Source: an uncultured Acidobacteriota bacterium
GTDB lineage: Bacteria; Acidobacteriota; Thermoanaerobaculia; Gp7-AA8
Direction of reading: 5' to 3'
Length of the DNA stretch: 64,000 bases
Assembly: GCA_963758195.1 (NCBI GenBank)
Contig: CAVWUH010000002.1
Span: forward strand, 715,618 to 779,617
Part shown: positions 47,392 to 63,116 of the stretch, piece by piece
Layout of the letters: each line of letters starts with the position of its first letter
How positions within the stretch are numbered: position 1 is the first letter of the stretch
Made by a program: the position numbers and the translations under genes
The notes under the pieces: model-generated
Told to the model about the DNA's origin: nothing
What the model saw: the letters and a program-made list of their open reading frames with translations, nothing else
Database searches by the model: none

Positions 47392-47447
47392 TTCTCCGCA
47401 TCTCCGCGTCTCCGCGTGAAATCCATCTCACGCGGAGACGCGGAGGA
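47392..47447. repeat. Heptamer-repeat hairpin H16 (ctccgcg units)
   Basis: ttctccgcatctccgcgtctccgcgtgaaatccatctcacgcggagacgcggagg. Lies between the BNR hydrolase and GH57 genes. Confidence 0.7.
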
Positions 47448-47476
47448 AAATCGGAATCCGATACCATCCCCCGCCC

Positions 47477-49885
47477 ATGCCCACGCGTTTCATCACCATC
47501 CACGGACACTTCTACCAACCGCCGCGCGAAAACCCCTGGCTCGAGGCGGTGGAGACGCAGGATTCCGCGTTTCCGTATCACGACTGGAACGAGCGCATCA
47601 CCGCCGAGTGCTACGAGCCGAACGCCTCGGCGCGCATCCTCGATCGCGAAAGAGCGCATCCGCGGAATCGTCAACAACTACGCATCGATCAGCTTCAACT
47701 TCGGACCGACGCTCCTCAGCTGGCTCGCAGTCCTGCGCGCAGGAAACGTACGCCGCGATCATCGAAGCCGATCGGCTTTCGCGCACGCGGCGCTCGGGGC
47801 ATGGCAACGCCATCGCGCAGGCCTACAACCACATCATCCTGCCGCTCGCAAACGCGCGCGACCAACGGACGCAGGTACGTTGGGGCATCCGCGATTTCGA
47901 ACATCGCTTCGGCCGCAAGCCCGAGGGGATGTGGCTGCCGGAGACGGCCGTCGACGTCGCATCGCTCGAGGCGCTGGCGGCGGAAGGAATCGCCTTCACG
48001 ATCCTCGAGCCGAGCAGGCAGCGCGCTAGAACCGTCGCGAACGGTGGCGCAGCGGGCTCGATCCGACGATGCCGTACCTCTGCAAGCTTCCCTCGGGGCG
48101 CTCGATCGCGATCTTCTTCTACGACGGACCGATCTCGCGCGCCGTCGCCTTCGAGCGCCTCCTCGCGCGCGGCGAGAACCTCGCCCATCGCCTCGCTCGG
48201 CGCGTTCAGCGACACGCGACCGCACACGCAGCTCGTGAACATCGCCACCGACGGCGAGACCTACGGCCACCATCACCGCTTCGGCGACATGGCGCTCGCC
48301 TACGCGCTGCGCTCATCGAAGAGCAAAAGTCTCGCGACGCTCACGAACTACGCCGAGTTTCTCGAGCGCCATCCCGCCGACGCACGAGGTCGAGATCGTC
48401 GAGCAGACGTCGTGGAGCTGCGCCCACGGCGTCGAGCGCTGGCGCAGCGACTGCGGCTGCAACACCGGCGGCGCACCGGGATGGAATCAGCAGTGGCGCG
48501 CGCCGCTGCGCGCGGCGCTCGACTGGCTGCGCGACGAAGCAGCGGCGATCTTCGAGCGCGTCGGCAAGCTCGTGCTGCGCGATCCCTGGGCGGCGCGCGA
48601 CGAGTACATCGACGTCATCCTCGATCGCAGCGAACAGACGATCGTCGACGCTTCATCTTGCGAAGCATGCGATCGACGGTCGCGCGCACGATCACGTCCT
48701 CGAGCTGCTGGAGATGCAGCGCAACGCCATGCTCATGTACACGAGCTGCGGCTGGTTCTTCAACGAGATCTCCGGCATCGAGACGCGTGCAGGTGCTGCA
48801 CTACGCCGCGCGCGTCGATCCAGCTCGCCGAGCGCCTCGGCGCGACGTCCCTCGAAGCAGCAGTTCCTCGACCGCCTCGAGCCCGCGCGCAGCAACCTGC
48901 CGCCGGCAAGGGCAACGGACGCCAGATCTACGAGCGCGACGTCATCCCGGCGCGTCTCGATCTCTCGCGCGTCGCCGCGCACTACGCCGTGCTCTCGCTC
49001 TTCGACGACTTCGACGACGACGCGCGCGTCTACTGCTACGACGTCACGCGCCGCGACTTCGAGATCCACAAGAGCCGGCCGCGCGCGTCTGGCGATCGGC
49101 GCGATCGAAGTCACGTTCGCGCATCACCCGCGAGACCGCTGCCTTCGAATTCGCCGCTTGCACCTCGGCGAAACGGAGCTGACCGGCGGCGTCCGCGCGC
49201 TGCAAGCCGGCTCGAACTACGACTCCGTCCGCACGCAACTCGCTGCAGGCCATGGAGCCGGGCGGCGTGCCGATTCGTCATCCGATTGCTCGACACGCAT
49301 TTCGGCGAGACGCCGCTCTCCATCCGCTCGCTCTTCCGCGACGAGCAGCGCCGCATCCTGCAGCGAGCTCATCGACGCGACGCTGGAGGAAGCGGAGATC
49401 GACGTTCCGCCAACTCCACGAGCGCTACGACCCGCTGATGCGCTTTCACACGCGCCTCGGCATCCCCGTTCCGAAGGTCCTGCAGACCGCCGCCGAGTTC
49501 GATCTCAACATGCAGATTCGACGCTTCCTCGAAGAAGACGACCGCGCCGCTCGCGGAGATCGAGGCGCGGCTGCGCGAGGCGCAGCGAAGAAGGTGCAAC
49601 GCTCGACGAGATGACGCTGGTGGCCTTCCGCGATGCCGTCGAGCGCGCGTCGGAGCGTTTTCGTCAACGCCCCGAGGATCTCGATCGGCTGGAAGCATTC
49701 GACACGATCGTCACGCATCGTGCGCGACGGAGCGATCAACATCGATCTGCGCCGCGCGCAGAATCGCTACTACCGCCTGCGCAACACCGTGCGGCCCGCC
49801 ATCGCCGCGAGCGGCGATGCCGCGAAGCGAATGGCTGGCGCTGTTCGATGGCCTCGGCGAGAAACTGTCGATGGCACCGGTATAG
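47477..49885 (+). pseudogene. glycoside hydrolase family 57 protein (alpha-glucan branching/amylase type, with DUF3536-like C-terminus), with multiple frameshifts
   Basis: GH57 N-terminal signature FITIHGHFYQPPRENPW, catalytic region NIATDGETYGHHHRFGDMALA, and cysteine-rich SWSCAHGVERWRSDCGC. The segments are distributed over three frames. Confidence 0.8.
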
Positions 49886-49901
49886 CTACAATCGAGCGCG
49901 A

Positions 49902-51426
49902 ATGCACACCTCCGTCTCCCCCGCCCACGATGCCCGACGAGTGGCCGGCGTGCTTCTCCATCCGACGTCTCTGCCTCGGCGCTACGGCATCGGCGAGCTC
50001 GGCGATCACGCCGTCGAGTTCCTCGACTGGGCCGCGAGCGCTGGCATGCGGATCTGGCAGGTCCTGCCGCTGAATCCTCCCGGCTACGGCGCCTCGCCGT
50101 ACGGATGCCTCTCGTCCTTCGCCGGCAATCCGCTGCTCATCTCCTGCAGCGCTTGCTGCAGGAGGGACTGCTCGACGCCGAGCGACGTCGCCGACGTGCC
50201 GCGATTCTCGGATCAGCACGTCGAGCTCGATCGCGTTCAGACGTTCAAGTTCGCGCTGCTTCGCAAATCGTGGCAACGCTTCGAAGAGCGCGCGCCGGAC
50301 TCGCTGCGGGCGCAGCTCGACGCGTTCGTCCATGCACCCGAACAGCGCGAATGGCTCGACGACTACACGCTCTACATGGCGCTCAAGGACCACACCGGCG
50401 GCCAGCCCTGGTGGCGCTGGAACAGCGGGCTCATGAAGCGCACCCCGCGCGCGATGGAGCGCGCGCGCGTTCGCCACATCGACGCGATCCGCTTCTGGGA
50501 GTTCGCGCAGTTCCTGTTCTTCCGGCAGTGGGCGTGCGATTCGCGAAGCCGCGCACGCGCGCGGCATTCGCATCATGGGCGACGTGCCGATCTACGTCGC
50601 CGGCGACAGCGCCGACGTCTGGGCCAATCGCGAGCTCTTTCAGCTCGACGAGCATGGACAGCCGACCGTCGTCGCCGGCGTTCCGCCCGACTACTTCAGC
50701 GCAACCGGCCAGCGCTGGGGCAATCCGCTCTATCGCTGGGACCTCATGCGCGAGACGCAGTACCGCTGGTGGGTCGCCCGCGTGCGCACCAACCTGCGCT
50801 TCGCCGACATCGTGCGCCTCGATCACTTCCGCGGATTCGCCGCGTACTGGGAAATCCCCGCGAGCGAAGACGACCGCGGTGCGCGGACGCTGGATGCCCG
50901 GCCCCGGCCTCGCGCTCTTCGAAACGCTGCAACGCGAGCTCGGTCAACTTCCGCTCATCGCCGAAGACCTCGGCTTCATCACCGAGGATGTTCACGAACT
51001 GCGCAGAGCGATCGGGACTGCCGGGCATGCAGCATCCTGCAGTTCGGATTCGGACAGGACGACAGCCCGCACCTTCCGCATCGCTTCGAGCCGCACACGG
51101 TCGTCTACACCGGCACGCACGACAACGACACCGCGCGCGGCTGGTTCGAAGCCGCCAGCACCGAAGAGCGCGACAACGCGCGCGCCTACCTCGGCTGCTC
51201 GCACGCGGAAGAGATTGCAACGGCCTTGATCCGCGCGGCCTACACATCCGTCGCGGAAGCGGCCATCGTCCCCGTCCAGGACATCCTCGGCCTCGCCAGC
51301 GACGCCCGCATGAACACCCCCGGCGAAGAACAACACAACTGGACCTGGCGCCTCGCTCCCGGCATCCTGCGCAACGAGCACGCGGTGAGTTTGCGCAAGC
51401 TCGCGGCAATCACGGGCCGCGTGTAA
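49902..51426 (+). pseudogene. malQ: 4-alpha-glucanotransferase (amylomaltase, GH77), with multiple frameshifts
   Basis: N-terminus GVLLHPTSLPRRYGIGELGD...WQVLPLNPPGYGASPYGCLSSFAGNPLLIS. DVPIYVAGDSADVW, DHFRGF and YTGTHDNDT motifs lie in shifted frames. Confidence 0.8.
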
Positions 51427-51439
51427 CGCACGCGCCGGC

Positions 51440-51560
51440 AGCGAGACGCTGCCGGCCCAGCCGGCGAGACGCCGGCGGTCCAACGGCGTCGCTTGTGGAC
51501 CGCTGCCGTCTCGGCGGCTGGCGTGGCGGCGTCCCGCGCCGCCACTCGGGCGGGTGGGCG
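51440..51560. repeat. Family-2 element, copy d (permuted, like copy b)
   Basis: Half-B, spacer, half-A arrangement. Lies between malQ and the ydjM-like gene. Confidence 0.75.
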
Positions 51561-51577
51561 GTTACGATTCACCCGCA

Positions 51578-52090
51578 ATGCCGACGATCTTCACGCACCC
51601 CGCGCTGACCTTGCTGAAACCGTGGTTCCCGCGTGTTCCGTCGCGCGCGATCGCCGCCGGCATCGTGGCCAGCATGCTTCCCGATGCCGACACCATCGGT
51701 TTCGCCTTCGGCATCCCTTACGGTTCGACATTCGGTCATCGCGGGTTCACGCACTCGATCGTCTTCGCGCTCCTCGTCGCTACGCTTGGAACATGGCTGC
51801 TGCGCGTCAGCGCGAATCGCGGCGTCACCTTCGCGTTTCTGTTCCTCTGCGCGATCTCCCATCCGATCCTGGATGCCTTCACGAATGGAGGACGCGGGAT
51901 CGCGTTCTTTTCACCGTTCAGCAATCACCGCTACTTCTTCCCCTGGCGCCCGATCGACGTCTCGCCGATCGGAGTGCGCTTCTTCAGCGACCGCGGCCTG
52001 CACGTCATCACGAGCGAGTTGATCTGGGTGTGGACGCCGTGCGTCGTGCTAGGACTCGCCGGATGGCTTCACGCGCGAAAGACGTCGTGA
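51578..52090 (+). CDS. membrane-bound metal-dependent hydrolase (YdjM/DUF457-like)
   Basis: The start is set at MPTIFTHPAL; the upstream part of the ORF translates a family-2 repeat. Four transmembrane helices with conserved His residues (FGHRGFTHS, ISHPILD). Confidence 0.6.
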   Translation: MPTIFTHPALTLLKPWFPRVPSRAIAAGIVASMLPDADTIGFAFGIPYGSTFGHRGFTHSIVFALLVATLGTWLLRVSANRGVTFAFLFLCAISHPILDAFTNGGRGIAFFSPFSNHRYFFPWRPIDVSPIGVRFFSDRGLHVITSELIWVWTPCVVLGLAGWLHARKTS

Positions 52091-52629
52091 ATGTCGAGCG
52101 CGAATCCGGCGAGGATCGGAGTCGTGATCGTGCCGCCGGTCTCCGTGCTGATCTCTGCCACGCGTTGAAACGCGGCATCGACACGACGGTGAATCTTCAC
52201 TGTCTCGAGCTCGGGATCGACGATCCAGTATTCGGCGACGCCGTTTTCATCGTAGATCTTGCGCTTCTGGATCTCGTCCCGGCGGCGTGTGCTCGGTGAA
52301 AGAACCTCCACCACGAGATCCGGTGCGCCGCGGAGATTCTTCTCTCCTACGATTCCCGCGCTCGCGGTCGTGATGACGACGAGATCCGGCTCCAGCATGT
52401 TGTCTTCGTCGAACACCACATCGAGCGGAGAACTCAACACTTCGCCGCCGCCGTGAGCCACGAAGTGGCGATACAACGCGAACCAGATTCGGCCGACAAT
52501 GCGTTGATGCGTGGGAATGGGAGCAGGATTCACGAGCAACTCCCCATCAATGATCTCGTAATGCTTACCGTCATCCGGCAGCTTGAGGTATTCCTCGTAG
52601 GTCATCCTGGTCGAGGTCTCGGTAGCCAT
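52069..52629 (-). CDS. Uma2-family endonuclease (DUF820)
   Basis: YEIIDGELLVNPAP...EPDLVVI...APDLVVEVLSPST...KYDENGVAEYWIVDP is the canonical Uma2 PD-(D/E)xK pattern. Confidence 0.8.
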   Translation of the reverse strand: MATETSTRMTYEEYLKLPDDGKHYEIIDGELLVNPAPIPTHQRIVGRIWFALYRHFVAHGGGEVLSSPLDVVFDEDNMLEPDLVVITTASAGIVGEKNLRGAPDLVVEVLSPSTRRRDEIQKRKIYDENGVAEYWIVDPELETVKIHRRVDAAFQRVAEISTETGGTITTPILAGFALDIHDVFRA

Positions 52630-55262: not shown

Positions 55263-55382
55263 CAGGTCGAGCTCGGTGCAGGTTCCTTGCCGGTGGCACT
55301 CTTCGACGGACGCGTACGCGATATGCGAGCGGGCGTCGTCCTGCTGCTCAACGGGGCGGCGTCCCGCATTCGCCGCGGTCCT

Positions 55383-55922
55383 CTATGTCGCGGACACCTG
55401 CGCCACCCACCCATCCACCTTTTCGATCGCTGCCCTTGCTTCCGCTGGTTTGACGTGCGGTTTGATCTCCATCAGCTTCGCCGCGCGAGCGGCGGCGTAG
55501 GCGTTTGGCTGCTGACGAGTGACGAACAGCGCCGTGGTTAATGGTTCGAGTTCTTTCACACCTAGCGAGCCGAGCTGCGATGCAGCGAAGTCAATCGCCT
55601 GCTGGTACTTCGCGATTGTCTGAGGGAACTGCTCGCGGAGCTGTGAGAAACGCTCGCCGGTGTCGTAGGTCACCCCCAGTTCGCGAGGAGAAACCCGAAG
55701 GAACTCCTCGGCTTCGAGCAACGCGAGCCGATTGCGTAGCTGGAATGAGAACGGGCCGTAGTAGTGGATGCGGAACTGGTCCGAAAGAGGAACGCCGAAC
55801 AGCTCCTTCATTACGAACGCCGCCTTCTGAAGAAGTGTCTCACCGCAGGCGTGGCCGGTCGCACGCACCTTTTCGACGAATGCGCCGAGGATGGCAGCTT
55901 GTTTCAGATATTCAGTGCTCAT
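55383..55922 (-). CDS. Panacea-domain (DUF4065-like) protein, putative antitoxin/immunity partner
   Basis: TLLQKAAFVMKELFGVPLSDQFRIHYYGPFS resembles the Panacea core (KLQKLLYF...G.PLF...F.AW.YGPV). ATGA translational coupling to the upstream HD-domain gene. Confidence 0.45.
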   Translation of the reverse strand: MSTEYLKQAAILGAFVEKVRATGHACGETLLQKAAFVMKELFGVPLSDQFRIHYYGPFSFQLRNRLALLEAEEFLRVSPRELGVTYDTGERFSQLREQFPQTIAKYQQAIDFAASQLGSLGVKELEPLTTALFVTRQQPNAYAAARAAKLMEIKPHVKPAEARAAIEKVDGWVAQVSAT

Positions 55923-57250
55923 GATGGCTCCTTCTCAGAAAGGATCTTCTCGAGGTTCTCATGCAGCCAGGTGCGGCCTTCCTCGAGAAGCTCCGGCGCG
56001 ATGAAGACGAAGTCGAACACCGCCTTCGGCATCTCCCCGAGGATCTGCGACAGATGAATGGATGAGACGACCGCGCCGTCATCGCGTTCGACGGCGAAGC
56101 GAAACGGCTCGGGCACGGCGGATTCAGGTTCGCTTAACTTGATGTTCGTGTCGTGCGCCACGAATTCTTCTCCAAATCGGTCGCGAGCTGCACAATACAC
56201 AGCACCGACCGCATCCGCGTTTCTCTTCAGGTCTTCGGGGCGACGCTCGTAAAGGACGCGGAAGAAGCGCCGTTGGAGGATGCGCGAAGCGAGCTGGTGT
56301 CGCGGCAATTCAGGATCGGCGACATCGTCTTGCATCGCCGCGAGAACGTGATCGTTGGTAAGCCGCAGGTGGCCCTCGACGGTCGTCGGATAGACCCCGC
56401 CGGGCAGAAACGCCGGCAAATACTTTTTCAAGTGGACGTCCAGCGCGCGACGAACCTTGTGAAAGTAGAGTTGCTCGAACATGAAGTAGCGCGCAAGCTG
56501 CAGTCCCTCAGCAGCGTGCAGACCGCCGGCTTCGATACCGACGACAGCCTTCTGCTGCTCGTCGTCCCACATGATTCGCAATGTGTCGATGACTCGCTGA
56601 TGATCGAAGCGCCCGTACGCGACGCCGGCATGCAGTGAGTCGCGGAGCAGGTAGTCGATCCGATCAACGCCGAACGGATCGCCGGTGACGATCTCGGTCA
56701 TCAGTTCTTCCCACTCGGTGAACGGCGCCCCGTTCCACTTGTCGGCACCCACGGCGATCTTCGCCACGTGATCAGCGTTGAGCGGCGGCGTCATGTCATT
56801 CCAAAGCTTCTGCATTTGTGGTGACCGGATCACCTCCACCGATAAGTTCTCGTGATGCGTATTCTTCGGCAACAGTTCCTCGGCGCCATGTGAAAACGGG
56901 ATGTGTCCGAGGTCGTGACAGAGGGCCGCCATCCGCACGATCGAACGCCAATACCGGTGCTTCGCATCTGTCGGATCAGTCGACGGGAAAATGTTCTTCA
57001 GGCGACCGGTCGTCCGCCGGTTCTCCGGATGCGTGAGCACATCGAAGACTCTGCCGGCAAGATCCATGACGCCGAGGCAATGCTCAAAGCGCTTATGCGT
57101 GGCCGCCGGATAGACGAGCCAGGTAAGAGCGAGCTGGTGAATGTGCCGAAGGCGCTGGAACGCGCGCGAATTGACAACTTTGCGTTCATCGGACGTGAGG
57201 ACGATAAATCCGTGGATCGGATCACGGAATTCGTTGTGTTCCTTAGCCAC
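55919..57250 (-). CDS. HD-domain dNTP-triphosphohydrolase-like protein (dGTPase/SAMHD1 family)
   Basis: FRDPIHGFIVLT...NSRAFQRLRHIHQL...THKRFEHCLGV and CHDLGHIPFSHGAEE match the dGTPase/SAMHD1 HD motifs. Confidence 0.8.
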   Translation of the reverse strand: MAKEHNEFRDPIHGFIVLTSDERKVVNSRAFQRLRHIHQLALTWLVYPAATHKRFEHCLGVMDLAGRVFDVLTHPENRRTTGRLKNIFPSTDPTDAKHRYWRSIVRMAALCHDLGHIPFSHGAEELLPKNTHHENLSVEVIRSPQMQKLWNDMTPPLNADHVAKIAVGADKWNGAPFTEWEELMTEIVTGDPFGVDRIDYLLRDSLHAGVAYGRFDHQRVIDTLRIMWDDEQQKAVVGIEAGGLHAAEGLQLARYFMFEQLYFHKVRRALDVHLKKYLPAFLPGGVYPTTVEGHLRLTNDHVLAAMQDDVADPELPRHQLASRILQRRFFRVLYERRPEDLKRNADAVGAVYCAARDRFGEEFVAHDTNIKLSEPESAVPEPFRFAVERDDGAVVSSIHLSQILGEMPKAVFDFVFIAPELLEEGRTWLHENLEKILSEKEPS

Positions 57251-57353
57251 AAGGGCATGGTAGCAGTGGCAAATGCGGGCTGCGAAAGTTCTACTCCGCG
57301 TAGCTATCTGCAGACGTGTATAAGTGGAGAGTTCCGCGCTTCGACGGCGCCCC

Positions 57354-58109
57354 CTACCTCCCCGCCAACATCGGATACGGATTCACATACGTCCCCTTCC
57401 ACCATCTCCGTTCCTGGTCCAGTCGAATCAGCGCGAAGTGCAGATGCGGTGTGTTCTTCGGGGCGTTGCCGGTGGTGCCGACGTAGGCGAGGACTTCGCC
57501 GCGGTGGAGGAGTTGGCCTTCGTGGAGGCCGGGGGCGTAGTGGTCGAGGTGGGCGTAGTAGTAGCAGAAGCGCTGGTCGGGATCGAACTGGTAGACGGTC
57601 AGGCCGCCGGGCTTGCTGGTGAAGAGTTTCTTCACCACGCCGTCGTCGGTGGCGATGACCGGCGTTCCGGTGGGGGCGAGGATGTCGATGGCCTCGTGAC
57701 GTTTGTTGCCGCGCGTTTCGTTGAAGGTGTCGCGCATGGCGGCGCGCGTGATGCCGGCGACCGGGACGATCATCGGGCGCGGGGCATCGGGATCACGCAT
57801 CGAGGGTGTTTGATTGGCGACGAGAGGCGGCGGAGCGGTCGCAGTCGCGATGGGCGCGATGACATCGGCGGGTACCGCGGGCTCGATTGGAACTTCGATG
57901 GGCACGTCGGGTGGCGGTGCGTCGAGCGGTTCGCCGGAGAGGTCGGGAATCTCCACGGCGGTCGATGATGCCGGTGCGGGCACAGGCGCCCCCATGGCAC
58001 GCGGAACGTCTCGGCGCACCGGACTGTCGGCGGTCCTGTCGGGTCCGGCCGCGATCCAGGCGACCACGCCGACGAGCACAACGCCGAAGAGTGCGAGCAG
58101 CTTCTTCAC
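57354..58109 (-). CDS. M23-family metallopeptidase (LytM-like), secreted
   Basis: Transmembrane/signal N-terminus and a Pro-rich linker. HxxxD...HLHF motifs (HEAIDI, YYAHLDH, PHLHFAL). Confidence 0.8.
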   Translation of the reverse strand: MKKLLALFGVVLVGVVAWIAAGPDRTADSPVRRDVPRAMGAPVPAPASSTAVEIPDLSGEPLDAPPPDVPIEVPIEPAVPADVIAPIATATAPPPLVANQTPSMRDPDAPRPMIVPVAGITRAAMRDTFNETRGNKRHEAIDILAPTGTPVIATDDGVVKKLFTSKPGGLTVYQFDPDQRFCYYYAHLDHYAPGLHEGQLLHRGEVLAYVGTTGNAPKNTPHLHFALIRLDQERRWWKGTYVNPYPMLAGR

Positions 58110-58119
58110 GACCTCAACC

Positions 58120-59112
58120 TCATTTGACGAGGATCGCCGCCATTCCGGGCGTCACGAGGTTCGCGAGCTCGAGGGCGTCCCAATTCGTGAGACGGATGCA
58201 GCCGTGCGAGCTGGTCTTGCCGATCGTCGAAGGCACGGGCGTGCCATGGATGCCGTAGTGCGGTTTCGAGAGATCGATCCAGACGACGCCGACGGGGCTG
58301 TTCGGCCCGGCGGCGAGTTTCACTTTCTTTTCGCTCGCCTCGGCGTCCCAGAAGAGGTCAGGGTTGTAGTTGAACGTCGGATTGCGAGCCACGCCGTTGA
58401 TCTTCCACTCGCCGAGGGGAAGCGGATCGTGCGTGCTGCCGGTGGTGGCGGGATACCGCGCGACGACGACTTTGTTTCCATCCACCACTTCGACGGCTCC
58501 GGCGCTCTTGCTGACGCGCACGATCATCGCGGAGTTCTTTTCGAGTGCCGGACGCGCGACCGCGGGCACCTGGATCACGGTTCCGGCGCGATTGAATTTC
58601 TTTCCCGGATTGAGAAGGACGAGCAGGCTCGCATTGACATGGAACTTCTCGCCGAGCGCCTCGGTGACGCTTTCGTATCCGAGCGACGGCAGTTTCGCTT
58701 TGTCGGCCATCTCCTCGGGAATTGCGGCAAAGGGGCCGGCCACATCCTCGGCAGTGAGCGTGTAGGAAACGATCGCCGGCGCGGTGTCGCGATTCAGGGC
58801 CTTCCACGTTGCGGCGCCGACACGAGAGCCATCGTTGATTTTGCGAGCGCGGTTGAACGCGGCGACCGCGCCGCGCATGGTGCCGCCGAAGCGGCCGTCG
58901 ATCTCGCCGGCCGGAAAGTGCGCGCGGTCGAGAAGGATCTGCGCGCGCACGACGGACGCGTTGCGCTGCGAAGATGCGGTGAGGATCGGATGGCCGGTGG
59001 CTTTGTTCACCGCGGCGACGTTGACGGAGTTCGTGGCGGCGTGCACCGGAACGGCGAGGAGAAGGAGCAAGGCACTGCACAGGATGTTTCGCAGGGTCAT
59101 GACGGTGGACAT
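58120..59112 (-). CDS. L,D-transpeptidase (YkuD domain) with peptidoglycan-binding domain
   Basis: Signal peptide, PG_binding-like region (AQILLDRAHFPAGEIDGRFGGTMRGAV), and catalytic HGTP...SHGCIRL. Confidence 0.85.
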   Translation of the reverse strand: MSTVMTLRNILCSALLLLLAVPVHAATNSVNVAAVNKATGHPILTASSQRNASVVRAQILLDRAHFPAGEIDGRFGGTMRGAVAAFNRARKINDGSRVGAATWKALNRDTAPAIVSYTLTAEDVAGPFAAIPEEMADKAKLPSLGYESVTEALGEKFHVNASLLVLLNPGKKFNRAGTVIQVPAVARPALEKNSAMIVRVSKSAGAVEVVDGNKVVVARYPATTGSTHDPLPLGEWKINGVARNPTFNYNPDLFWDAEASEKKVKLAAGPNSPVGVVWIDLSKPHYGIHGTPVPSTIGKTSSHGCIRLTNWDALELANLVTPGMAAILVK

Positions 59113-59153
59113 TGCAATGGCAAGGCCGTCCCGATGGGGGCAACAGAATTCGG

Positions 59154-59228
59154 GTTCACGCGGAGAGGCGCGGAGAGGAGACGGTCAGGAGCCTTTATCT
59201 CCGCGTGCTCCGCGTCTCCGCGTGAACC
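59154..59228. repeat. Heptamer-repeat hairpin H17 (cgcggag units) 3' of treZ
   Basis: gttcacgcggagaggcgcggagagga ... tctccgcgtgctccgcgtctccgcgtgaacc. Confidence 0.7.
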
Positions 59229-60980
59229 GTTTGGAAGCCGTACGCCGCGAGCGTGATTTCACACCCGTTCGCGCTTGGGAAGGGGACGTTCAGCGTTTGC
59301 TCCTCGTTCGCGAAGTTGAAGGCGAGGATGATTTCGTCCACGTTGGTCCAGCGTCGGACGAACAGCACGCGTCGTTCGTCGTCGGCGTGGGTTTCGAGGC
59401 GCGAGAGATCGAGGCTGCGCAAGGCGGGGGTTTCGCGGCGCAAGGTGAACAGCTGTTTGTAGAATGAGCGAAGCGATTCGTCTTCGATGCGCGTGAGCTT
59501 CGAGCGGAGGAACGTCGATTCATCGTGCGGGTCGGGAGGTACGCCGGACCAGATGAAGTCGTCGAACTCTTCGCTGCGGCCCTTGCGTACGGCTTCGATG
59601 AGATCCGCGTCGGAGTGCGAGGTGAAGTACTGGAACGGTGCGGTCTCGCCGTACTCCTCGCCCATGAAGAGCATCGGAAGGAACGGCGAGAGCACGATCG
59701 CCGCGGCGGTGAGGCGCACCTGCTCGGGCGACACGAGTGTCGTCAGGCGATCGCCCATCATCCGATTGCCGATCTGATCGTGCGTCTGCGCGGAGACGAC
59801 GAAGCGCGCGCCGTCGCTCGTCTTCGGATCGGCGCCGTACTTGCGGCGGCGATAGGGCGAGTGTTGTCCGATGTAGAGAAATCCCTTCGTGAGCACGCGC
59901 GCGAGATTGCTGACCTTGCGGCGGGAAGCTCTCGTAGTAGCCGTCGCTCTCGCCGGTCAGCAACGTGTGCAGCGAGTGGTGGTAATCGTCGGCCCATTGC
60001 GAGTCGAAGCCGAGGCCTTGCTGTGCACGCGGAGTGATCACGCGCGGATCGTTCAGATCGCTCTCGGCGATGCTGTAGACCTTGCGCCCGAGCTCGCGTG
60101 CGCGTGCGTGTACGGCGGCGTTGAGATCCTGCAGGAACGGCTCGGCCGAGGGATCGACGATCGCGTGCACGGCATCGACGCGCAGGCCGTCGATGTGAAA
60201 CTCGTCGATCCATTGCAGCGCGTTGTGGATGAAGAACCAGCGCACGTCGTCGCTGTGCGGGCCGTCGAAGTTGAGCGCCGGACCCCAGGGCGTCGCGTAG
60301 CGCGCGGTGAAGTACGGGCCGTATTCGCTCAGGTAGTTTCCCTCGGGGCCGAGGTGGTTGTAGACGACGTCGAGAAGCAGGGCGAGACCGCGTTGATGAC
60401 AGGCATCGACAAGCCGCTTGAGCGCGCGCGGACCGCCGTACGTCGATTGCGCGGCGCCGATGTACGTTCCGTCGTAGCCCCAGTTGCGCGAGCCGGGAAA
60501 CTGCGCGATCGGCATCAACTCGATGGCGGTGATGCCGAGGTCTTTGAGCGCATCGAGATGTGGAACGATCGCGTCGAACGTCCCTTCGTCGGTGAACGTG
60601 CCGACGTGCAGCTCGTAGAGAACGTAGTCCTCGAGCGCGATGCCGCGCCAGCCGTCGTCGTGCCATTCGAAATCGCCGGCGATGACTTCTGAAGCGGCGT
60701 GAACGCCGTCCGGCTGCGAGCGCGACGCGGGATCGGGACGCTCGGTTCCGCCGAGGTCGAAGAGATAGCGCGTGCCCTCGCCGCAATCGTCGACGATGCC
60801 TTCGTGATAGCCGTTCGGCGCCTTGTGCAACGGCACGCGACGTCCGTGCGGCGCGACGATGTGCACCTCGACGCGCTCACGATGCGGAGCCCACACGCGA
60901 AACTCGCAGCGATTGTCGTCGAGCACGTGCGCGCCGAGGAGAGGTCTGTGCGTTTGATCAGGCATGAGGGAAAAACTCAT
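59195..60980 (-). CDS. treZ: malto-oligosyltrehalose trehalohydrolase (GH13), carrying a single frameshift
   Basis: N-terminus through the catalytic regions (GLRVDAVHAI, SDLND, YHHSLH) is in frame 59520..60980. The C-terminal domain (LSPFLPMLFMGEEYGE...) is in frame 59195..59896. The frameshift is near 59900. Confidence 0.85.
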
Positions 60981-61095
60981 GTCATCCCGAGCGTAGCGAG
61001 GGACCCGGGTGGGTGGGGGCGCGCAACACGATCTTGAATCACGAGTCGCGTGCCACACACCCACCCAGGTCCCTCGCTCGACGCTCGGGATGACA
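60980..61095. repeat. Family-4 palindrome, copy 3
   Basis: Lies between the treZ start and the glgB end. The arms match copies 1 and 2; the centre diverges. Confidence 0.8.
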
Positions 61096-61097
61096 GG

Positions 61098-63116
<2,019 letters not shown>

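Follow-up and report, generated by a model that had tools for sequence, protein, structure and literature searches.

Gene content and organization of the locus

The window analyzed here, a 64,000-nucleotide stretch of DNA from an uncultured Acidobacteriota bacterium, contains a 1.9 kb pair of overlapping genes on the minus strand (Table 1). By its close homologs, the window belongs to a genome of the Thermoanaerobaculia. The upstream gene encodes an HD domain protein, and the downstream one a small protein whose homologs carry the JGI label "uncharacterized protein YwgA" (hereinafter, YwgA-like). The two ORFs, the ATGA overlap between them and the motifs quoted in a preliminary description of this DNA are all present in the sequence, on the minus strand, which that description had left unstated: HCLGV at residues 57-61 and CHDLGHIPFSHG at residues 111-122 of the HD protein, and TLLQKAAFVMKELFGVPLSDQFRIHYYGPFS at residues 29-59 of the small protein. 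Judging by their conservation, with over 4,900 homologs for the HD protein and, for the small protein, a family of about 1,950 clusters when grouped at 50% identity (902 of them at E<=1e-10), both ORFs are real genes rather than chance ORFs. The ATGA overlap suggests translational coupling of the two genes. The same 4-nt overlap is found in the gene calls of four other loci (L006, L011, L012 and L098), and a 5-nt gap separates the genes in a fifth one (L009).

Table 1. Features of the HD/YwgA-like gene pair and its boundaries, in window coordinates
Feature	Coordinates	Strand	Description
HD gene (443 aa, GTG start)	55919..57250	minus	SAMHD1-like/COG1078 (YdhJ/YwfO-type) HD phosphohydrolase (predicted); putative effector/toxin
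YwgA-like gene (179 aa, ATG start)	55383..55922	minus	Stand-alone homolog of the DarG C-terminal toxin-binding domain (predicted); putative inhibitor/antitoxin
ATGA overlap (HD stop TGA, YwgA-like start ATG)	55919..55922	minus	Read directly from the sequence
103-nt intergenic region, M23 peptidase gene to HD gene	57251..57353	minus	Presumed promoter/operator region of the pair
120-nt intergenic region, YwgA-like stop to treY start	55263..55382	minus	Downstream boundary of the inserted pair

The intergenic region upstream of the HD gene has a GC content of 58%, compared to the window mean of 64%, and a consensus scan of this region detected no sigma-70-like promoter. No terminator-like site was found between the YwgA-like gene and treY, and the scan showed no terminator enrichment. 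A search for flanking repeats that could represent insertion scars around the pair yielded no meaningful ones.

Insertion into a trehalose gene block

The pair had been described as lying inside a glycogen/trehalose block and as a possible inserted accessory module, and comparison of gene orders bears out both points. In a related locus (L097), in which TreY is 73% identical, the genes are arranged in the order xdhC-malQ-glgB-treZ-treY-uma2-uma2-ydjM-GH77-GH57, with treZ abutting treY. The window keeps this synteny but carries the genes for an L,D-transpeptidase (LDT), an M23 peptidase, the HD protein and the small protein between treZ and treY; the inserted stretch thus consists of four genes, compared to the two that the preliminary description implied. 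As assembled, the glgB, treZ, GH57 and GH77 genes of the source genome carry apparent frameshifts. The HD and YwgA-like genes have a GC content of 59% and a GC3 of 71-72%, as against 64-67% and 81-82%, respectively, for the treY, M23 and LDT genes, placing the pair about 10 GC3 points under its neighbors. The two cell-wall genes and the pair probably arrived in separate events.

None of the genes flanking the pair in the window is shared with four related genomes (L001-L004). Among 108 nearest-neighbor ORFs, the recurrent matches included Hma helicase and methylase (5), NOV_C (5), type III methyltransferase (4) and DUF1156 (4), and DarT and AEP-TOTE were each matched a single time; in other loci, ParE-type toxin-antitoxin genes and a HEPN_Swt1-DUF499 gene are located beside the pair. 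Overall, defense and conflict genes account for about 10-15% of the nearest neighbors, most of which are ordinary metabolic genes. A tblastn search with two family members found no plasmid or phage copies. By its genomic context, the pair is probably accessory and horizontally mobile.

The HD protein is predicted to be a SAMHD1-type enzyme

In Pfam searches, the HD assignment made in the preliminary description held: the upstream protein matched HD with 32.1 bits (cutoff 22) and, in addition, HD_assoc_2 with 30.2 bits (cutoff 23.1). The best match among PDB sequences was 2HEK from Aquifex (E 2.5e-51), an uncharacterized "hypothetical protein" without an assigned activity, followed by EF1143 from Enterococcus (2O6I; 6.5e-30) and SAMHD1 (~1e-18). 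Many of the homologs are 443 aa long and align at 100% coverage. The scores against the dGTPase models were far below the cutoffs, with the HD core alone aligned in each case, and both candidate assignments were rejected: Dgt-type dGTPase (TIGR01353; 34.8 bits, cutoff 152.35) and anti-phage dGTPase (NF041026; 21.6 bits, cutoff 400). Therefore, by domain composition and similarity to solved structures, the HD protein is a SAMHD1/COG1078 (YdhJ/YwfO-type) enzyme rather than a Dgt; of the original designation "dGTPase/SAMHD1", the second half stands and the first does not.

The catalytic and metal-binding residues H57, H112, D113, H116, H121, D196, D199, Y200, R203 and D204 are invariant in all 46 homologs that belong to intact pairs, and the set, comprising H...HD...D and the DYxxRD motif, is complete in the HD protein of the window. 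Given this invariance, the HD enzyme is expected to be active.

The small protein is predicted to adopt the fold of the DarG C-terminal domain

The small protein had been characterized as Panacea-like. No Pfam match whatsoever was obtained for it at E<=1, including SocA_Panacea (PF13274, DUF4065), nor did any of ten further diverse family members match PF13274 at E<=5. Among 50 YwgA-like family members, three showed some similarity to this model, with a best E-value of 0.0025. Membership in the Pfam Panacea family was therefore rejected, given that the gathering score was not reached and that the window protein and the ten other members were without a match; a failure to match Panacea was also what the preliminary description had named as refuting its assignment, so that the strict Panacea call falls.

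Searches against antitoxin models yielded a different relationship. The small protein matched the NCBIfam DarG model (NF048014) with an E-value of 1.9e-6 and 27.4 bits (cutoff 250) over model positions 170-314 alone, and the PADLOC DarG model with an E-value of 4.6e-8; the latter model was matched by all 50 diverse members of the family (best E 3.4e-13). A Pfam search found no Macro domain in the small protein; with the N-terminal macrodomain missing and the NF048014 score so far under the cutoff, its identification as a full DarG antitoxin was rejected. No nucleotidyltransferase (NTase) or other enzymatic domain was matched in Pfam or NCBIfam either.

The AlphaFold2 model of the small protein, built with 27 homologs, consists of a winged helix followed by a helical bundle (pLDDT 90, pTM 0.87). 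The sole significant match of this model to PDB in a Foldseek search was to chains B and D of 7YK3 (E 9e-5, probability 1.0, TM 0.67), which are the C-terminal domain of Mycobacterium tuberculosis DarG bound to DarT. This match covers the full length of the protein, extending beyond the winged helix alone. At the sequence level, a profile of the diverse family retrieved 7yk3_B as its top PDB hit, with a marginal E-value of 0.047, through the core QK..YF...GP(F/Y)S, the very stretch spotted in the preliminary description, which is common to the DarG C-terminal domain; searches with the single protein or with a profile of close homologs produced no PDB match. A search of the viral structure database BFVD gave no significant match and none with a Panacea name. 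The DUF4065/Panacea domain is itself reported to be homologous to the DarG C-terminal domain (PMC13621843, 2026). Thus, "Panacea-like" is right for the superfamily, to which the DarG-type fold and the shared core point, but wrong for the family, as PF13274 is not matched: at the level of the modeled fold, the small protein belongs to the Panacea/DarG C-terminal domain superfamily, with the DarG C-terminal domain as its nearest relative.

Nearly all members of the YwgA-like family are stand-alone proteins of about 180 aa, and the longer ones (217-281 aa) contain no extra Pfam domains. The alignment of the 27 homologs includes 34 invariant columns. With a median pI of 6.4, and one of 8.7 in the window protein, the family is not acidic, so that the ssDNA mimicry attributed to DarG is not simply transferable to it; an acidic "DNA mimic" role, considered for the YwgA-like family, was rejected for want of support from pI and charge.

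Linkage, co-evolution and asymmetric decay of the two genes

The association between the two genes in other genomes was assessed in loci retrieved through the small protein (80 metagenomic and 8 other ones), of which 73 were informative on the upstream sequence after the removal of duplicates. A full-length HD gene precedes the small gene in 41 of these loci, an HD remnant in 10, and the C-terminus of an HD gene that reaches the contig end in 18, whereas four have no HD gene. Hence, a whole or remnant HD gene lies directly upstream of the small gene in 69 of the 73 non-redundant loci, across several phyla, and the co-occurrence that the preliminary description had proposed to look for is confirmed. 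Conversely, when distant homologs of the HD protein (about 50-60% identity; in Bacillota, Rhodothermales and another MAG) were taken as the starting point, each was found to have a YwgA-like gene downstream, encoding 177-184 aa and either overlapping the HD gene by 4 nt or located 5 nt away. With its 4-nt overlap in the window and its conservation across phyla, the pair fits the operational definition of a PanAT-type module (Kurata et al. 2022), namely, a locus of two genes separated by no more than 100 nt and conserved in several species.

The HD and YwgA-like proteins co-evolve. Their matrices of pairwise identities are correlated at r = 0.848, a value that none of 2000 permutations in a Mantel test reached, with the small protein evolving faster (mean identity 44%, compared to 55% for the HD protein).

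The association does not extend to all related HD genes. No YwgA-like gene was detected within 3 kb of the YwfO-type HD gene in Listeria and Bacillus, nor within 3 kb of an HD gene of a Klebsiella plasmid (about 30% identity); a 175-aa ORF downstream of the Bacillus HD gene was examined as a candidate YwgA-like partner and rejected (hhalign probability 0.2%). In B. subtilis, ywfO and ywgA are, we presume, adjacent. From these gene neighborhoods, the pairing with a YwgA-like gene is specific to the HD subclade represented in the window.

In 53 loci, the sequence available ahead of the small gene was 1,350 nt or longer, and the state of the HD gene was scored in these: it was intact in 41, frameshifted only in two, affected by a large deletion or truncation in eight (L001, L004, L005, L049, L056, L064, L069 and L072) and absent in two (L008 and L084). 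Thus, a deleted or missing HD gene was recorded in 10 of the 53 loci (about 20%), with the small gene intact in nearly all; since retrieval of these loci relied on an intact small gene, the asymmetry is biased. Among truncations ascertained through HD (n=2), the partner is intact in one (L098) and both genes are damaged in the other (L099). Loss of HD with retention of the partner is suggestive of a costly effector.

A proposed module and the alternatives

Taken by the families to which its predicted products belong, the pair represents a large family and is a variant of the DarG/Panacea-type antitoxin modules in which the putative effector is SAMHD1-like. We propose, at roughly even confidence, that the two genes form a module that moves horizontally, either a type II-like toxin-antitoxin or an anti-phage one, whose SAMHD1-type HD effector is restrained by its partner. 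In this scheme, the effector would be a SAMHD1-type triphosphohydrolase that is competent in catalysis and acts on nucleotides, probably dNTPs, and the co-translated 179-aa protein would bind it directly and hold it inactive, the ATGA overlap coupling synthesis of the inhibitor to that of the enzyme. Should the inhibitor be lost or displaced, for example, upon phage infection or under stress, the freed enzyme would deplete nucleotides and so arrest DNA replication of both the cell and the phage. The binding, inhibition, substrate, toxicity and defense role of the pair are all put forward here by analogy with characterized systems. Specifically, the small protein would most likely bind and inhibit the HD enzyme, because the DarG C-terminal domain and the PanA proteins neutralize their toxins by direct binding (for PanA, Kurata et al. 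2022). A more specific version of this proposal, which we advance only tentatively and consider somewhat doubtful, is that the YwgA-like proteins form a distinct stand-alone branch of the DarG C-terminal domain/Panacea superfamily that functions as stoichiometric protein inhibitors of SAMHD1-type dNTPases, such that the pairs, which are widespread (about 2,000 protein clusters), would represent an abortive-infection or toxin-antitoxin family in which a protein antitoxin, rather than allosteric nucleotides, controls nucleotide depletion.

SAMHD1-type enzymes also perform housekeeping roles, and the winged helix in the model of the small protein could make it just a DNA-binding regulator; both points count against the module, as do the negative plasmid and phage search and the predominance of ordinary metabolic genes among the neighbors. 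An alternative that we regard as unlikely is a non-toxic metabolic or regulatory pair, in which the HD protein would be a hydrolase involved in sanitizing or homeostasis of the dNTP pool, and the winged-helix protein a transcriptional regulator or an allosteric subunit, without any addiction or defense. Against such a pair, no YwgA-like gene neighbors the YwfO-type housekeeping HD genes in Listeria and Bacillus or the Klebsiella HD gene; the pair in the window is inserted, compositionally foreign and surrounded by a different context in every relative. Frequent deletion of HD speaks against this alternative as well, and so does the full-length fold match, which is to a toxin-inhibiting domain and involves more than the winged helix.

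The logic of an effector with a protein inhibitor could also apply to an HD protein that is not a dNTPase and would instead act on another nucleotide or signaling substrate, or as a ssDNA or RNA nuclease. Among the HD-superfamily proteins that share this metal site are nucleases as well as hydrolases of (p)ppGpp or cyclic nucleotides; the nearest solved structure has no assigned activity; the similarity to the dGTPase models is confined to the HD core; and the partner of DarG itself acts on ssDNA (PMC13621843). We nevertheless consider a different substrate class quite improbable, given that the motifs VDRxDYxxRD and HDxGHxPFSH, together with HD_assoc_2, are those of the SAMHD1/EF1143-type dNTP triphosphohydrolases and are invariant in the clade. 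Long spurious ORFs are common in high-GC genomes, and a fortuitous adjacency or a spurious small ORF was also entertained; however, the size of the YwgA-like family, the invariant columns among its members and the confident fold, along with the HD linkage and the co-evolution (r = 0.85), refute this explanation and leave it a negligible probability. The module with a restrained SAMHD1-type effector thus remains the reading that we favor for the pair.

Comparison with known systems

We found no paper on the HD/YwgA-like pair. The preliminary description took the combination of an HD dNTPase with a Panacea protein to be an undescribed architecture, which does not hold: pairs of an HD (YdhJ) protein with Panacea are already present in Dataset S1 of Kurata et al. 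2022, where "HD domain-containing protein" (CDD YdhJ = COG1078) is the predicted PanAT toxin cluster pT33/T34. The T34 entries come from Ammonifex, Desulfofundulus and Caldicellulosiruptor, with the toxin gene preceding the antitoxin gene at spacings of -4, 0 and -17, and are all marked "notest"; in that listing, T34 is confined to thermophilic Clostridia and includes the pairs WP_115792120.1/WP_115792121.1, WP_027357562.1/WP_084327280.1 and WP_127352754.1/WP_127352755.1. Accordingly, the HD-plus-Panacea architecture had been predicted previously but never tested or discussed. The pair in the window resembles T34 in that a COG1078 HD protein is combined with a small antitoxin-type protein that stands alone and belongs to the same superfamily, in the toxin-first order and with a -4 overlap. 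It differs in that the PanA proteins of T34 exceeded the Pfam gathering cutoff, which the family in the window does not, the comparison being with the published listing alone. If the proposal is correct, it would assign a function to cluster T34 of the Panacea catalog and to the many "hypothetical" proteins that make up the large COG YwgA family.

The likeness to DarTG resides in the small protein, which in its model has the full-length fold of the DarT-binding, DarT-inhibiting C-terminal domain of DarG (7YK3), and in the gene order, with the effector gene first and the DarG-like gene second. However, the upstream gene of the pair encodes an HD hydrolase with HD and HD_assoc_2 rather than the ADP-ribosyltransferase DarT, and the pair was therefore rejected as a DarTG system. 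Unlike DarG, the small protein lacks the N-terminal macrodomain, so that no enzymatic reversal is possible, and is not acidic. If the proposed mechanism is correct, DarTG and the SAMHD1-like dNTPases would become connected.

Nucleotide depletion is an established antiviral mechanism, and bacteria and animals alike employ HD dNTPases for it in their immunity, the latter through SAMHD1. With the stand-alone anti-phage dGTPases of the Dgt/TIGR01353 type (Tal et al. 2022) and with SAMHD1, the HD protein of the window shares the HD-domain triphosphohydrolase core; unlike the Dgt-type enzymes, it is of the SAMHD1/EF1143/2HEK type, with HD_assoc_2, and is accompanied by a small, obligate partner protein.

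How cells protect themselves from HD dNTPases has so far been barely understood, and Clover (2025) is the first worked example. In this system, the CloA dNTPase is paired with the nucleotidyltransferase CloB, and the defense dNTPase needs this dedicated partner to restrain its toxicity (PMC12265719). Like Clover, the pair described here comprises two genes, one for a potentially toxic HD dNTPase that, under our proposal, would be kept in check by a dedicated partner. Identity with Clover (CloAB) was rejected, given that the partner in the window has no Pol-beta-type NTase match in Pfam or NCBIfam and is predicted to adopt the DarG C-terminal domain fold instead. Whereas CloB makes an inhibitory nucleotide, p3diT, the YwgA-like partner probably acts through protein-protein binding, and if so, a protein inhibitor with the DarG/Panacea fold would represent a second, different solution to the restraint of dNTPases.

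Loss of the HD gene in related genomes

The SAMHD1-like HD phosphohydrolase gene and the adjoining YwgA-like gene do not always share the same fate in related genomes. At five loci, the HD gene is either damaged or gone: large internal deletions removed residues 136-391 in L001 and residues 206-361 in L004, only a C-terminal stub is left in L005, and the gene is absent from L008 and L084. The YwgA-like gene is intact at all of these loci despite the deletion, truncation or absence of its partner. Where part of the HD gene is retained, it is always the 3' end, which adjoins the small gene.

Features of the window and of related loci
Feature	Location	Strand	Context
GH57, GH77 (malQ-like), treZ and glgB	window 47400-51450 and 59200-63100		frame changes relative to L097 orthologues
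Uma2-family putative restriction endonuclease gene	window 52069-52629	minus	just downstream of treY
M23 peptidase and YkuD L,D-transpeptidase (LDT; with PG_binding_1 domain) genes	window 57354-59112	minus	between treZ and treY
Inverted repeat	window 59153-59228		treZ 3' end and intergenic region ahead of LDT gene
Damaged HD gene	L001 5245-6001
Damaged HD gene	L004 5001-6001
Damaged HD gene	L005 4519-5001
HD gene absent	L008
HD gene absent	L084
Dgt-type HD gene	L009 2445-3620		divergent; adjoins HD-YwgA pair
Macro-domain gene	L012 3299-3769		directly upstream of HD-YwgA pair

The treZ-treY junction and its surroundings

The HD pair is not the only insert between treZ and treY, which abut in the related locus L097: the M23 and LDT genes also separate them in the window. 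The GC3 of these two genes (81-82%) is native-like, in contrast to that of the HD pair, and the junction has probably been struck more than once. The inverted repeat (18 nt, 94% complementary, 40-nt spacer) is a possible terminator or regulatory hairpin. The Uma2 gene, with a lower GC3 of 73%, occupies the same position in locus L096 and is tandemly duplicated in L097.

Alignment of GH57, GH77, treZ and glgB to their intact L097 orthologues required one to three frame changes per gene, about eight over 8 kb in total, and several further ORFs of the window yielded only partial Pfam domain matches. The frameshifted genes reflect either an indel-rich assembly or pseudogenization. Intact genes in the window include TreY, Uma2, YdjM, XdhC, LDT, M23, HD and the small gene.

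Possible links to defence systems

In the alignment of the YwgA-like family, 46 of the 50 members matched the PADLOC candidate model PDC-M19A over its N-terminal part (positions 13-101 of 294), and 10 matched the PADLOC 'Specificity_I' model (E 5e-7). The literature search found no publication on PDC-M19.

In a Bacillota MAG (L009), the HD-YwgA pair is adjoined by a Dgt-type gene (HD and HD_assoc domains), so that two different dNTPase-type genes lie side by side. In L012, HIT and HNH genes surround the pair and the stand-alone Macro-domain gene. Among loci L001-L092, DarT accounts for one of the 108 nearest neighbours of the pair, at a single locus. Together, the L012 Macro-domain gene and this DarT neighbour hint at a physical proximity of DarTG-type parts to the HD-YwgA pair.
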